Below, piece after piece: positions 1 through 6,723 of a stretch of DNA of 64,000 nucleotides. The position numbers and the translations under genes were made by a program. Source of the stretch: Candidatus Omnitrophota bacterium (lineage in GTDB: Bacteria > Omnitrophota > Gorgyraeia > Gygaellales > Profunditerraquicolaceae); the NCBI GenBank assembly GCA_022710715.1, contig JAKLGJ010000001.1, positions 170,041 to 234,040 on the forward strand. Reading direction: 5' to 3'. The number at the start of each line of letters is the position of its first letter. Within the stretch, counting starts at the first letter, position 1. The notes beneath the pieces are model-generated. The model was given only the letters and a program-made list of their open reading frames with translations. It searched no databases and was not told the origin of the DNA.

Positions 1-911
<911 letters not shown>

Positions 912-1082: not shown

Positions 1083-1156
1083 GGGCCCATAGCTCAGATG
1101 GTTAGAGCACAGCCCTGATAAGACTGGGGTCAGTGGTTCGAGTCCACTTGGGCCCA
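1083..1156 (+). tRNA. tRNA-Ile (anticodon GAT)
   Basis: Cloverleaf GGGCCCA/TGGGCCC acceptor, D arm AGCTCAGATGGTTAGAGC, anticodon loop CTGATAA, T loop GGTTCGAGTCC; no encoded CCA. Typical 16S-23S spacer tRNA. Confidence 0.9.
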
Positions 1157-1229: not shown

Positions 1230-1302
1230 GGGGGCGTAGCTCAGTTGGGAGAGCATCTGCTTTGCAAGCAGGGGGTCGCCAGTTCAACTCTGGTCGCCTC
1301 CA
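1230..1302 (+). tRNA. tRNA-Ala (anticodon TGC)
   Basis: Acceptor GGGGGCG/CGCCTCC with the G3:U70 Ala identity pair, U8-A9, D arm GCTCAGTTGGGAGAGC, anticodon loop CTTTGCAAG, discriminator A; no CCA encoded. Confidence 0.9.
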
Positions 1303-1979: not shown

Positions 1980-3426
1980 TTGAAAAGAACCCCGGGAGGG
2001 GAGTGAAATAGAACCTAAAATCATAAACCTACAAAGCGGTAGGAGGCCTATACGCATCGCAAGGTGCGGATGGCTGACTGCGTACCTTTTGCATAATGGT
2101 CCGACGAGTTATTAGTTTCAAGCGAGTTTAAGTGAGTTGTGAAAGCATCTCACGAAGGCGTAGGGAAACCGAGTCCTAACCGGGCGACCATAGCTTGAGC
2201 TAATAGACCCGAAGCTGAGTGATCTATCCATGGCCAGAGGGAAGCCTCGCGAAAGCGAGGTGGACGTTCGAACCCTTCGGCGTTGAAAAACCGTGGGATG
2301 AGCTGTGGATTGGAGCGAAAGACTAAACAAACTCAGAAATTGCTGGTTCTCCCCGAAACAATTCTAGGGTTCGCCTTAGAACACTACGTCATAGGGGTAG
2401 AGTGCTGAATGGACTACGGGAGTCTACCGACTTGCCGGGTCCAACCAAACTCCGAATACTATGACGACTATTCTAGGAGTAAGACGACGGGGGCCAAGCT
2501 CCGTCGTCAAAAGGGAATCAGCCCAGATCGCCGGCTAAGGTCCCTAAGATTAGGCTAAGTTATAAAGGATGTGGATCCGCTCAGACAGCCAGGATGTTGG
2601 CTCAGAGGCAGCCATCATTTAAAGAGTGCGTAACAGCTCACTGGCCGAGCGAGTCTGCGCCTAAGATGAACGGGAATTAAGCCTAACACCGAAGCTGTGG
2701 GTGTACGGTGACTTCGGTCATCGTATGCGGTAGGGGAGCATTATCCAGTCGGTTGAAGCGGTACCGTGAGGAGCCGTGGACACTGGATAAGGGATTATGT
2801 CGGAATAAGTAGCGAAAATGTCTGCGAGAAACAGACACGCCGAAAGTCGAAGGTTTCCTGGGGAAGGTTAATCCACCTAGGGTTAGTCGTGCCTAAGCCG
2901 AGGCCAAATGGCGTAGGCGATGGATGAACTGTTAATATTCAGTTACTACCTTGTTGGCGTCATCACTTTTCATGTGACGCAGGAGGGATGGAGCTGCGCA
3001 GTGTTGGATGTCTGCGTTCTTGTGCGGGGAACCGCATGAGGGGAGCTTGAGGTTTCCGAGAGCGAAGTGCACTACTTCCATACTGCCAAGAAAAGCATGG
3101 GAAGGAGTTAACAGGGTACACGTACCGGAATCCGACACAGGTAGACCACCAGAATATGGTAAGGCGATCGAGATAACCCTCTTTAAGGAACTCTGCCAAA
3201 TAGCCGCGTAAGTTCGCAATAAGCGGTGCCCCGCCTCGTAAGGGGATGGGGTCACAGTAAAGTGGATCGGGTGACTGTTTAGCAAAAACACATCTCTCTG
3301 CAAACTCGAAAGAGGACGTATAGGGAGTGACACCTGCCCAGTGCTGGAAGGTTAAGGGAATCTGTTAGTGAGAGCAATCTTGCAAAGCGGTGAACCGAAG
3401 CCCCAGTAAACGGCGGCCGTAACTAT

Positions 3427-4102
3427 TGATTGACCGCAGTAGTTGTAAAATTTGGCTATATGCTGGGAAATCCTGTCAGGCCGGCAGTACGTCTGTCTTT
3501 AAGACGGAACGTGACAATCTGCCGGATAGGGACAATCAGCAGGAAAGACCTGAAGGAGGTCTCCGTGAAGATAGAAACAGGCTATTACTTAGCTGGTTTT
3601 GCGGATGGGGAAGGGAGTTTCAACATATCCTTTCGTCCGAGGCAAGACTATAAATCACCATGGAAAGTTTCTTTGTGTTTCAATATCTCTCAGAAAGATA
3701 AAGTTATTCTTGCATTGTATAAGCGCTATCTAGGCTGTGGAACATTGCGAGGCAGGCCTGATGGAGTCTGGTACTTTGAAGTGAATAATTTCGAATCGAT
3801 CAGAGAGAAAGTAATACCTTTTTTTAGAAGGTATCCATTTTTATCAGCTAAGAAAAAAAGAGATTTCGCAAAATTCTGCGAACTCGCGCGGTTGATTAAA
3901 AATGAGAATCACCTGACAAAAGAGGGGATTAAGAAAATACTTGAAATACGAAGAGATATGAATGATGGTGGCAAACGCAAGTATAGCGAGATGGAGATCT
4001 TAAGCAAGCTTCAGGAATCCTCAGAGACTATACGCCAAACTCCTGGTCAATCAGGAGATGATATAGTCCGGTCTTCCGGGAAACCGGAAGTTAACATGAA
4101 CG
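3427..4102 (+). mobile_element. Group I intron #1 in 23S, inserted after ...GTAACTAT (E. coli about L1917); carries a LAGLIDADG ORF
   Basis: Exon collinearity with E. coli breaks between GTAACTAT and AACGGTCC. The 5' exon ends in U and the intron ends in G. It contains the group I P7 strands (TCAGAGACTATACG at about 4020-4035, GATGATATAGTCC at 4060-4075) and a P9-like hairpin GGTCTTCCGGGAAACCGGAAG. Confidence 0.8.
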
Positions 4103-4113
4103 AACGGTCCTAA
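3565..4113 (+). CDS. LAGLIDADG homing endonuclease (single-motif, about 182 aa), intron-encoded; start probably GTG 3565 (the ORF frame is open from 3430)
   Basis: Motif YYLAGFADGEGSF (LAGLIDADG) near the N-terminus, preceded by SD AGGAGG 5 nt upstream of GTG. The reading frame runs through the intron P7/P9 core and 11 nt into the downstream exon (stop TAA at 4111-4113). Confidence 0.75.
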   Translation: MKIETGYYLAGFADGEGSFNISFRPRQDYKSPWKVSLCFNISQKDKVILALYKRYLGCGTLRGRPDGVWYFEVNNFESIREKVIPFFRRYPFLSAKKKRDFAKFCELARLIKNENHLTKEGIKKILEIRRDMNDGGKRKYSEMEILSKLQESSETIRQTPGQSGDDIVRSSGKPEVNMNERS

Positions 4114-4116
4114 GGT

Positions 4117-4308
4117 TAACGTAATAACGCTAGCCTGCTTGGTAGTAATACCAAAGAATAATTACCAACTATATCGGTGAAGTCCTCGGTTGTATAGAGG
4201 ATAATACCGAGGGAAGTCGTAAATGACCCCGTAGAGACTACACGTTGGCTCCTGCGTAAAGCAGGATGAAGATATAGTCCACGCCAATAGTAATATTGGA
4301 TTAACGTG
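4117..4308 (+). mobile_element. Group I intron #2 in 23S (ORF-less, 192 nt), inserted after ...CCTAAGGT (E. coli about L1931)
   Basis: Exon AACGGTCCTAAGGT (4103-4116) is followed by 192 nt absent from E. coli, then AGCGAAATTCCTTGT. The 5' exon ends in U and the intron ends in G. P7 strands CGTAGAGACTACACG and GATGAAGATATAGTCC are present. Confidence 0.7.
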
Positions 4309-4878
4309 AGCGAAATTCCTTGTGGGGTAAGTTCCCACGCGCACGAATGGTGTAACAACCTGATCGCTGTCTCAAAGAGGGACTCGGCGAAATTGTAGTG
4401 GCGGTGAAGATGCCGTCTACCCGCATCAAGACGAAAAGACCCCAGAACCTTTACTGCAGCCTACCATTGGGTTTTGGTTTAATTTGTGTAGCATAGGTGG
4501 GAGACTTTGAAGCCCGGGCGCTAGCTCGGGCAGAGTCGCAATGTGAAATACCACCCTGATTGGACTAAAATTCTAACCTTCCGACCTGAATCGGCCGGGG
4601 GGACAGTGATAGGCGGGCAGTTTGACTGGGGCGGTTCCCTTCTAAAAAGTAACAAAGGGGCCCAAAGGTTGGCTCAAGTCGGTCGGCAATCGACTTAGGA
4701 GTGTAAGCGCATAAGCCAGCTTGACTGCAAATCCGACAGGACGCGCAGGTACGAAAGTAGGGGCTAATGATCCGGTGGTGAAATGTGGAATTGCCATCGC
4801 TCAACGGATAATAGGTACTCTGGGGATAACAGGCTTATCGGGCTCGAGAGTTCACATCGACAGCCCGGTTTGGCACCT

Positions 4879-5297
4879 CAACATCATGGGGTGGTACGGG
4901 AGCAATCCTGTACATGCATTGGCTAATAACGGTGGAGTCTTCTCCCGGCGCACGCGCCGGGATTGATAATACCGTGGGAAGTCTGCAGAACATAAGCAGT
5001 TATTTCAGTGGTCTTTTCTCTTGGTGACAAAGTCTCAATCGATAGGTCTAATACTTTGATCTCGAATACATACACTAATGGATGGTTCAAAGTTATTAGG
5101 ATGTCTTTTGCTGTTCTTTGCTCATCATGAGAAAGCCATGTTCTGTATGACCCCGTAACGACTGATAGTACGGACGCACGATCCGAGCGTTATACGTACT
5201 TGAGATAGCAGAATGTGTTGCTATCATACGCCAACTCCGCTTACTGCAAACGGAAGAAGATATAGTCTAATCCCATCCGAAAGGATGGACAAGATTG
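4879..5297 (+). mobile_element. Group I intron #3 in 23S (ORF-less, 419 nt), inserted within GGCACCT^CGATGTCGGCTC (E. coli about L2499)
   Basis: Collinearity break inside the conserved peptidyl-transferase-centre sequence. The 5' exon ends in U (4878) and the intron ends in G (5297). The 3' core GAAGAAGATATAGTCTAATCCCATCCGAAAGGATGG (P7 plus P9 hairpin) lies just before the 3' splice site. The AT-rich interior has no intact ORF. Confidence 0.7.
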
Positions 5298-5365
5298 CGA
5301 TGTCGGCTCATCCTATCCTGGGGCTGGATAAGGTCCCAAGGGTCCGGCTGTTCGCCGGTTAAAAG

Positions 5366-5401
<36 letters not shown>

Positions 5402-6145
5402 AAATTGACCGTTGCTGTCTTTAAATCTGGCTATGTGCTGGAAAATCTGAGTATCTCATATTACTAATTGACGAAATAGTCTCTACATGATACTATGCAG
5501 TCGGGAGTGATAATATATGAGTGCAGATCACCAGCAGGAAAGGCCAAGCGGGATAGCATCATTCTATGTCAGTGGTTTTGTCGACGGAGAAGGCTGCTTT
5601 TCTATAACAATTCAGAAAAGTAAAAATGTGAAATTAGGGGTACAGGTTATTCCCGAGTTTCACGTCAGCCAACATCAACGCAGGACTGAAGTTCTTGAAG
5701 CAATCAAGGGTAAGTTTGGTTGTGGCTATATCAAAGCAAACAATCCGAATAACCCCAAAGATCTTACTTCAGTATACGTTGTTCGTAATTTAGCTGATCT
5801 TCGTGATAAAATCGTGCCGTTTTTTAAGAAATATCCTTTGTATTCGTCAAAGCAGCAGGACTTTGAGAAGTTTGCAAAAGTCGTGCATGCTATGAGTAAA
5901 AAGGACCATCTTGAAAAGAACGGTTTAAGCAGAATATTGAAACTATCATTCTCGATGAATGACAGCGGTAGGTATCGTAAACTGAAAATAGAAGATGTGC
6001 TGTCCAGTTTGGAATCCTCAGAGACTATACGCCAGAAGCTTGCTGTAAAGCAAGTTTAAGATATAGTCCGAACTGCATGGCGACATGCAGAGATTGGCAG
6101 AAATGCCCAATCCTTTTACATGACAATGTAGAAGTAACATAATTG
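5402..6145 (+). mobile_element. Group I intron #4 in 23S, inserted at CGTCGTGAGACAGT^TCGG (the I-CreI-type L2593 site); carries a LAGLIDADG ORF
   Basis: Break exactly at the classical L2593 homing site. The 5' exon ends in U (5401) and the intron ends in G (6145). Intron start AAATTGACCG resembles intron #1 start TGATTGACCG. P7 strands TCAGAGACTATACG (about 6018-6031) and TTTAAGATATAGTCC (6057-6071) are present. Confidence 0.8.
5517..6059 (+). CDS. LAGLIDADG homing endonuclease (single-motif, 180 aa), intron-encoded
   Basis: Motif FYVSGFVDGEGCF with ATG start and SD GGGAGTGA upstream. The C-terminal ...SSLESSETIRQ is encoded by the same 24-nt P7 core sequence as in intron #1. Size and architecture resemble I-CreI-family homodimeric enzymes. 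Confidence 0.8.
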   Translation: MSADHQQERPSGIASFYVSGFVDGEGCFSITIQKSKNVKLGVQVIPEFHVSQHQRRTEVLEAIKGKFGCGYIKANNPNNPKDLTSVYVVRNLADLRDKIVPFFKKYPLYSSKQQDFEKFAKVVHAMSKKDHLEKNGLSRILKLSFSMNDSGRYRKLKIEDVLSSLESSETIRQKLAVKQV

Positions 6146-6607
6146 TCGGTCTCTATCTGGTGTGGGCGTCAGGATATTTGAAGGGGAGTTCTCCTCAGTA
6201 CGAGAGGACCAGGAGAAGCGGACCTCCGGTGTTCCGGTTGTCTTGCCAAGGGCAAAGGCCGGGTAGCTATGTCCGTAAGAGATAAGCGCTGAAAGCATCT
6301 AAGTGCCAAACTCGCCCCAAGACTATATATCCCTGGGTCGCAAGACCCTGAAGGCACCTCGAAGACTACGAGGTTGATAGGCGCGGTGTGTAAGATCCGT
6401 AAGGATTTAAGCTAACGCGTACTAATTTGCCAATCGGCTTGTCCTTTAATTTTTTTAATTCAGGACTATTGTAGAACTTCTTAATTCTGTGGTTGTTGAA
6501 TTTCTCTAGACATGTTAATAGGGGAGACCGGAGCACTTTTGCACTTTCGCGCATCCGCGCTCAAGTGCAAAAAAGTTTCCTCTATTGTTTTGTCTAGAAA
6601 CACTTTT

Positions 6608-6723
6608 GGAGTGCCTTTGCCGCAAGGGTCACACCCGTTCCCATTCCGAATACGGTAGTTAAGCCTTGCTGGGCCGATGGTAGTGTATTCGTAAGGATAT
6701 GCTAGAGTAGGTCGGTGCTCCAT
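6608..6723 (+). rRNA. rrf: 5S rRNA
   Basis: GGAGTGCC...CCGTTCCCATTCCGAACACGG-like...GCCGATGGTAGTG...GAGTAGGTCGGTGCTCC. The termini are complementary and the length is about 116 nt. Confidence 0.85.

Follow-up and report, generated by a model that had tools for sequence, protein, structure and literature searches.

Group I introns can occupy neighbouring sites of a single ribosomal RNA (rRNA) gene, and the closest described cases are the 23S genes of Synechococcus sp. C9 (PMC1995217) and of the plastid of the diatom Navicula vanseea (rrl; PMC11019260). In both, the sites L1917 and L1931 (large subunit (LSU) rRNA, E. coli positions) are occupied on either side of a 14-nucleotide (nt) exon, domain V holds another intron, and the endonuclease encoded at L1917 is a LAGLIDADG protein with a single motif. 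Here we describe the same arrangement in a 64-kb stretch of DNA (hereafter the window, meaning the whole stretch analysed) from a metagenome-assembled genome of Candidatus Omnitrophota. Its 23S gene carries intron 1 at L1917 and intron 2 at L1931, with the same short micro-exon between them. The introns of Synechococcus C9 and Navicula are both 650-750 nt long and endonuclease-encoding and, according to their description, have no P2 but a complex P5, whereas intron 2 of the window (4117-4308) is 192 nt long, has no open reading frame (ORF), and possesses a P2 hairpin and a simple P5. It is most probably an autonomous ORF-less group I intron belonging to a widespread family of 184-205-nt mini-introns of uncultured bacteria. 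The occupation of both sites is real and more than a chance occurrence.

Two other bodies of work frame this locus. Very short exons separate tandem group I introns in the Coxiella burnetii 23S gene (34 nt) and in orf142 of phage Twort (23 nt) (PMC10136302), and exon skipping has been observed in them. As in the window, one of the two introns carries a LAGLIDADG gene, and the same question of skipping versus inclusion arises; the Coxiella pair, however, is reported to occupy L1917 and L1951 (Raghavan et al. 2007, via PMC11270868 and PMC10136302), and the window exon is shorter, at 14 nt. A survey of the Candidate Phyla Radiation (CPR, Patescibacteria) catalogued 222 ORF-less group I introns in 23S genes, with sites 1917, 1931, 1952, 2593 and 2604 and multiple insertions in many genes (PMC11270868). 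The window shares sites with these introns, but its host is an Omnitrophota rather than a CPR bacterium, and the passages concerned list the introns and present neither structure nor covariation for any mini-intron family. Three proteins encoded downstream in the window are exact matches to NCBI proteins assigned to Candidatus Omnitrophota.

The boundaries of the pair are clear. When the Rfam bacterial LSU model was aligned over 3300-6400, large insertions appeared, two of which measure 677 and 193 nt; the former follows ...GUAACUAU and the latter lies inside ACGGUCCUA..GG. Fixed by eye from the sequence, the ends of introns 1 and 2 are unambiguous: the upstream exon ...AACUAU (AACTAT in the DNA) ends at 3426, which is U1917, the micro-exon AACGGTCCTAAGGT (AACGGUCCUAAGGU in the RNA) comprises the 3′ strand of helix 69 and the bases after it, and the downstream exon AGCGAAATTCC (RNA AGCGAAAUUCC) restarts at 4309. 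The LSU alignment closes exactly over intron 2, so that excision restores the conserved, uninterrupted 23S sequence. An assembly artefact is excluded by two contigs that carry the same junctions: L124, assembled independently (Logan SRR4244739), matches window 3397-4427 as an exact substring, and L125 (SRR5007146) is identical over the entire pair. A twintron was considered and rejected, as the introns stand side by side with 14 nt of genuine exon between them and no nesting.

Intron 2 is recognizable as a group I intron by itself. The Rfam family Intron_gpI (RF00028) matches 4107-4300 with 58.6 bits (E = 2.7e-12 over the window, model positions 1-253), above its gathering score of 50 bits, and an ORF search on the plus strand inside 4117-4308 found none of at least 50 amino acids (aa). 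Of the four 23S introns it is the sole one to exceed that score; the others fall below it because ORFs or extra helices interrupt them. Folding of the intron alone and in context gave minimum free energy (MFE) z-scores of -3.6 and -3.8. P1 was placed by the Rfam alignment and is seen in the in-context MFE and centroid folds; at the 5′ splice site, AGGU/UA (4113-4118; slashes mark splice sites) pairs with UAGCCU (4131-4136) through a U4116·G4133 wobble. The 3′ splice site is marked by G4308, by a covarying P9.0 and by a P10 pairing whose 3′ exon partner AGCG (4309-4312) is unchanged in all seven relatives of type A, defined below. The single-sequence MFE fold recovers P1 and P4-P9 but wrongly joins P2 to P3 and is unable to display the P3/P7 pseudoknot, and RNAalifold misses P3 as well; for this reason a hand-drawn structure was scored instead. 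A 7-nt repeat, TTAACGT, at the two ends of the intron (4116-4122 and 4301-4307) was examined as a possible signal and rejected: in relatives the 3′ end reads AACATG, and P9.0 has changed in compensation, so that the repeat looks coincidental.

These results uphold much of the preliminary description of this DNA, which had read both sites as occupied around a 14-nt exon and intron 2 as an ORF-less 192-nt group I ribozyme that keeps its P7 strands and ends in G: the strings it quoted, at 4230-4244 and 4265-4280, do contain the P7 strands, the folding in context that it proposed as a check shows P1, and the P3-P7 core is supported by 17 relatives. Its placing of the intron at about the lower size limit of group I introns is roughly right, but the size is nothing special; 192 nt is small yet not the minimum even of its own family, which has members of 184, 185 and 186 nt.

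Support for the structure comes from that family. Relatives were collected by two routes, from contigs encoding close homologues of the intron 1 endonuclease and from a metagenome scan with a 22-nt core motif, CCCCGTAGAGACTACACGTTGG, which returned at least 120 loci. Searching intron 2 with blastn against 120 genome loci gave weak matches to the core and nothing beyond. By the first route, the five loci L126-L130, whose endonucleases are 87-90% identical to that of the window, were found to carry a clearly homologous L1931 intron of 194-196 nt. The complete set comprises at least 17 distinct L1931 sequences of 184-205 nt, divided into type A, with the guide sequence CGCTAGCCT as in the window (7 of 17), and type B, with another P1/P2 module on the same core (10 of 17). 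Across the 17-sequence alignment, 98.9% of the pair cells of the core (P3-P9.0, including the P3/P7 pseudoknot) are paired, and two-sided changes occur at seven pairs, distributed over P5, P6, P8 and P9.0. The covariation score of 0.172 compares with 0.017-0.041 (31-41% paired) when partners are slid by 1-3 columns, and none of 500 shuffles matched it. P3, P4, P6 and P7 are paired in every sequence, P3, P4 and P7 being conserved with no two-sided change, and P8 is likewise fully paired, with compensatory changes at three pairs. Among the seven type-A introns all eight P1 pairs are intact, and in P2 compensatory changes affect four of the eight pairs, with 96% of cells paired. P9.0 is ACG/CGU in the window, whereas relatives have AUG/CAU or AUA/UAU; since this helix matters only for the choice of the 3′ splice site, its covariation argues for selection to splice.

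Table 1. Features of the rrn operon at the start of the window, with the anatomy of intron 2.
Feature	Position	Strand	Details
Intron 2 (L1931)	4117-4308	+	ORF-less group I, 192 nt, ends in G; Rfam and LSU insertion
P1, outer pairs	A4113-U4136, G4114-C4135, G4115-C4134, U4116·G4133		U4116·G4133 at the splice site
P1, inner pairs	U4117-A4132, A4118-U4131, C4120-G4129, G4121-C4128		
Internal guide sequence CGCUAGCCU	4128-4136	+	pairs with AGGU/UA.CG, 4113-4121
P10 (possible)	4128-4131 with 4309-4312		CGCU with 3′ exon AGCG (23S 1932-1935)
P2 hairpin	4138-4144 / 4149-4156	+	GUAA tetraloop, 4145-4148
P3	4165-4169 / 4244-4248	+	
P4	4174-4178 / 4206-4210	+	
P5	4182-4187 / 4197-4202	+	simple 6-bp hairpin
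P6	4211-4218 / 4225-4230	+	
P7	4236-4240 / 4275-4279	+	3′ strand UAGUC
P8	4250-4255 / 4261-4266	+	followed by J8/7
P9.0	4281-4283 / 4305-4307	+	encloses P9
P9 hairpin	4284-4289 / 4294-4299	+	GUAA loop
omega-G	4308	+	last base of intron 2
Micro-exon	4103-4116	+	14 nt, 23S 1918-1931; Rfam LSU alignment and sequence
Intron 1 (L1917)	3427-4102	+	group I, 676 nt, terminal G4102; LSU insertion of 677 nt
Intron 1 guide region	3432-3444	+	read from the sequence; GTAGTT and GACC motifs conserved elsewhere
Intron 1 homing endonuclease gene	3565-4113	+	182 aa, GTG start after GAAGGAGG
Intron 3 (after U2500)	4879-5297		419 nt, no ORF, ends in G; weak Intron_gpI match, 27.4 bits
Intron 4 (after U2604)	5402-6145		744 nt; Intron_gpI, 43.6 bits
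LAGLIDADG ORF of intron 4	5517-6059		180 aa
16S rRNA gene	1-907		5′ end cut off
tRNA-Ile gene (anticodon GAU)	1083-1156		between 16S and 23S; anticodon read by eye from alignment
tRNA-Ala gene (anticodon UGC)	1230-1302		between 16S and 23S; anticodon read by eye from alignment
23S rRNA gene	starts 1464		
5S rRNA gene	6607-6723		

The relation of intron 2 to its neighbour is the main issue of interpretation. The preliminary description argued that splicing of two ribozymes around a 14-nt exon must be coordinated, each drawing on the micro-exon for P1 and P10, and that intron 2 might cooperate with intron 1 or depend on it as a degenerate intron. Both introns do pair with the micro-exon. In intron 1, P1 is formed by GUAGUU (3439-3444) with the 5′ exon AACUAU (3421-3426), including U3426·G3439, and a possible P10 joins GACCG (3432-3436) to CGGUC of the micro-exon (4105-4109); the guide GTAGTT and the GACC motif are conserved across L1917 introns of many loci. 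A need for coordination finds no support, since the bases do not overlap: the P10 of intron 1 takes bases 3-7 of the micro-exon and the P1 of intron 2 bases 11-14, and the two guide sequences are unrelated. With separate halves of the exon and guides of their own, the two introns would therefore splice independently. In engineered tandem Tetrahymena introns, distinct P1/P10 elements suppress exon skipping (PMC10136302). Moreover, mini-introns occur where L1917 is empty (of type A in L186, of type B in L138/L216 and L246), none of these solo copies has an adjacent endonuclease gene, and the one in L138 scores 56.5 bits, above the Rfam threshold. As a separate observation, the L186 23S gene has a second group I intron of about 197 nt further 3′ (2581-2777; 59.7 bits).

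A degenerate intron 2 that relies on RNA-RNA cooperation with intron 1, or a single composite ribozyme made of both, would fit the distance of only 14 nt, the near-complete occupation of the micro-exon by guide pairings and the very small size of intron 2, and there is precedent in Twort, Coxiella and engineered Tetrahymena constructs, where tandem introns can combine into one ribozyme and leave the exon out (PMC10136302). We nevertheless consider it very unlikely: every core helix, P9.0 and omega-G are present and upheld by compensatory change, the family is found with L1917 empty and also beside a different, L1911, intron, the P1/P10 guides are unrelated and lie on exon bases that do not overlap, and skipping of the exon would remove part of helix 69 from the rRNA. 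Dependence on the neighbour is thus rejected on the grounds of a covarying core and of the solo copies. Still further from the evidence is the idea that 4117-4308 is no intron at all but a lineage-specific rRNA expansion or an intervening sequence processed by RNase III; the preliminary description had named part of a variable 23S helix as a refuting alternative. The rRNA genes of uncultured bacteria often contain short insertions of no assigned class (PMC11270868), but here the group I match lies above threshold, the 5′ junction has its U·G pair and the intron its final G, the P3/P7 pseudoknot is found, P9.0 covaries, and the site is a classic one for group I introns within a universally conserved, functionally critical stretch; we regard this explanation as extremely improbable. 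A true group I intron that needs a protein in vivo, for example a host factor or the LAGLIDADG product of intron 1 in the role of a maturase, is unlikely too. Maturase activity is described for some LAGLIDADG proteins in the same survey (PMC11270868), minimal cores without peripheral domains often need help (PMC2813881), and an endonuclease-encoding L1917 intron often accompanies the mini-introns. Against this stand the solo copies in L138, L216, L246 and L186 without a neighbouring endonuclease gene; the conserved GNRA loops L2 and L9 and the invariant CC:GG pairs in P8 and P5 also suggest stabilization by RNA alone.

More room must be given to the possibility that the pair is a composite mobile unit in which intron 2 spreads chiefly by co-conversion driven by the intron 1 endonuclease, which we regard as conceivable though doubtful. 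A spacing of 14 bp is well inside normal co-conversion tracts, and co-conversion of intron 2 during L1917 homing is plausible at this distance; the close relatives L126-L130 and L238 have the same pair, and joint occupancy of both sites recurs among L1931-intron genomes, as described below. I-OnuI-type half-domains bind about 22 bp as a pair, and the endonuclease of intron 1 is I-OnuI-like, so the L1931 site at +14 should fall just outside its target. However, partners reassort, near-identical intron 1 ends being found beside a type-A mini-intron (L126), a type-B mini-intron (L244) and, in L131 (endonuclease 88% identical), a different L1931 intron, 728 nt long, that encodes a LAGLIDADG protein itself; solo mini-introns exist; and identities between the window and L126/L129/L238 (exons 95%, intron 1 83-85%, intron 2 88%) track the host exons, which fits vertical descent of the pair in this Omnitrophota lineage. 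Other points weigh against an autonomous intron of this family and have to be set beside the evidence for it. P1, P3, P4, P7 and P9 hardly or never vary, which is compatible with the fold and is no test of it. The 17 sequences were partly gathered with the 22-nt motif, and conservation from the 3′ strand of P6 to the 3′ strand of P3 is there by construction because that stretch is the search motif. The solo type-A intron of L186 scores 44.4 bits, under the Rfam cut-off, and at roughly half of the L1931 mini-intron loci listed in the unbiased motif scan L1917 is occupied as well, so that some linkage with the neighbour may exist, either by hitch-hiking or because both belong to an intron-rich lineage. 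A core as small as this, with no peripheral domains, may need a protein cofactor in vivo, and splicing at the window locus is deduced from sequence alone.

For the autonomous mini-intron we propose the following course of events. The guide CGCUAGCCU would pair with the last four exon bases, AGGU, placing U·G at the splice site, and would later pair with the 3′ exon AGCG as P10. The compact core of P2, P3-P8, P9 and P9.0 would bind guanosine in P7, and two transesterifications would remove the intron, leaving helix 69/70 with its normal sequence; we infer that the intron catalyses these steps itself. The invariant CC:GG pairs of P8 and P5 are the probable docking sites of the GNRA loops L2 and L9, and these contacts may stand in for the extensive periphery that ordinary L1931 introns possess. 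Intron 1 would act as a separate element, each ribozyme reading its own half of the micro-exon with its own guides, and the differing P1/P10 elements would favour inclusion of the exon over skipping. Lacking an endonuclease, intron 2 would persist mainly by vertical descent and, if it moves, would probably do so through endonucleases acting in trans or by co-conversion with its neighbour 14 bp away.

In general layout, intron 2 resembles the group I intron of the Azoarcus pre-tRNA-Ile, a subgroup IC3 intron of about 205 nt: both have P2, a simple P5, P6, P8 and P9, GNRA loops on P2 and P9, a similar size and no large peripheral domains. The Azoarcus intron differs in its site, a tRNA anticodon loop, and in the sequences of its J8/7 and P7. 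A search of the literature on the smallest group I intron found nothing usable. It is tempting to see the 184-205-nt mini-introns as the smallest complete natural self-splicing group I ribozymes, below that of Azoarcus, and as parasites of a parasite that exploit the L1917 endonuclease by co-conversion, 14 bp being about the closest spacing that spares both targets of roughly 22 bp; we put this forward as a speculation and consider it rather improbable. With the canonical L1931 lineage (Thermotoga, Synechococcus, Simkania, chloroplast) intron 2 shares insertion after U1931, but it has no LAGLIDADG ORF (plus strand, at least 50 aa), and unlike the canonical design with no P2 and a complex P5 (PMC1995217) it has a covarying P2 and a simple 6-bp P5. 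Two short L1931 introns, in L070 (251 nt) and L005 (252 nt), have nearly the same guide (TAAC...GCTAGCCT), P7 and J8/7 but differ in the absence of P2, in extended P5 and P9, and in negligible blastn similarity outside the core.

Some further observations concern the family and its surroundings. The 22-nt motif was found mostly in introns of the 3′ part of the 16S gene (L133-L251), and also in introns near 23S L1951, among the loci listed; these introns range from about 180 to 1300 nt, some with ORFs and others with none. Judged by this motif, one nearly identical catalytic core scaffold appears to be widespread at several rRNA sites. In L132, L179 and L230 an ORF-less group I-like intron is inserted after U1911 (GGCCGT/...AACGTG/AACTAT), about 330 nt upstream of a type-B L1931 mini-intron from which it is separated by a 20-nt exon, and both insertion sites of this tandem are in or beside helix 69. 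The L1931 mini-introns of L144 and L205 and the upstream L1917 intron of L183 seem to end in A rather than G (...AATATA/AGCG; ...CAATA/AACGG) and may thus lack the canonical omega-G; one Coxiella intron is reportedly without it as well.

Intron 1 is a more conventional element. Its 3′ half gives an Intron_gpI match of 34 bits, and its endonuclease consists of a single LAGLIDADG_1 domain (Pfam PF00961, exact protein), with 4351 homologues at E ≤ 1e-5, including proteins of Ca. Velamenicoccus archaeovorus and other Omnitrophota, and E values of about 1e-43 to 1e-39 against the half-domains of I-PanMI, I-SmaMI and I-OnuI. The L1917 intron of Ca. Velamenicoccus, marked by an endonuclease 81% identical to the intron 1 protein, is spliced in vivo (PMC13153191). 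In the window the endonuclease ORF crosses the 3′ splice site, and its TAA stop lies at 4111-4113 in the micro-exon (UCC UAA); the excised intron 1 RNA would therefore have no in-frame stop, which is present only in the unspliced precursor. The endonucleases of L126-L130 stop 8 nt before the exon because of one extra T (GTTTAAC against GTTAAC in the window). A length of 182 aa is also that of many homologues.

The remaining features belong to the same operon. An Rfam search shows that a bacterial rrn operon fills the first 6.7 kb of the window (Table 1), with its 23S gene split by four introns, at E. coli positions 1917, 1931, 2500 and 2604. The Intron_gpI match in intron 3 covers its J8/7, P7 and P9 portion, and the 5′ end of intron 4 (AAATTGACCGTTGCTGTC...TGGCTATGTGCTGG) is similar to that of intron 1.

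The frequency of the arrangement was estimated by scanning a single genome of each species for copies of the micro-exon in which the next base is not A. At least 75 matches were judged genuine 23S genes, and 69 of these have both ends of the L1931 intron inside the fetched stretch. Regular-expression parsing was used, as BLAST mapping is blind to a 14-nt exon and merges twin introns. Among the matches listed, L1931 introns measure 204 to 822 nt, and L1917 is also occupied in 15 of the 69 species representatives, that is, in 22% of genomes that have an L1931 intron; these 15 come from Proteobacteria, Actinomycetota, Acidobacteriota, Nitrospirota and Gemmatimonadota and include a Coxiella endosymbiont. 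Arrangement and intron type alike recur and have been described before, and the locus represents no new kind of element or mechanism.

The significance of the locus is accordingly modest, as a good example of a known phenomenon. It offers a clean, independently assembled case of dense group I packing in the most conserved part of a bacterial 23S rRNA, and a natural setting in which to ask whether a 14-nt exon is included or skipped. For the organism, it means four introns in an essential gene that may exist in one copy only; for the family, it points to a compact, covariation-supported group of ribozymes of 184-205 nt that might be useful as a small model of group I catalysis.

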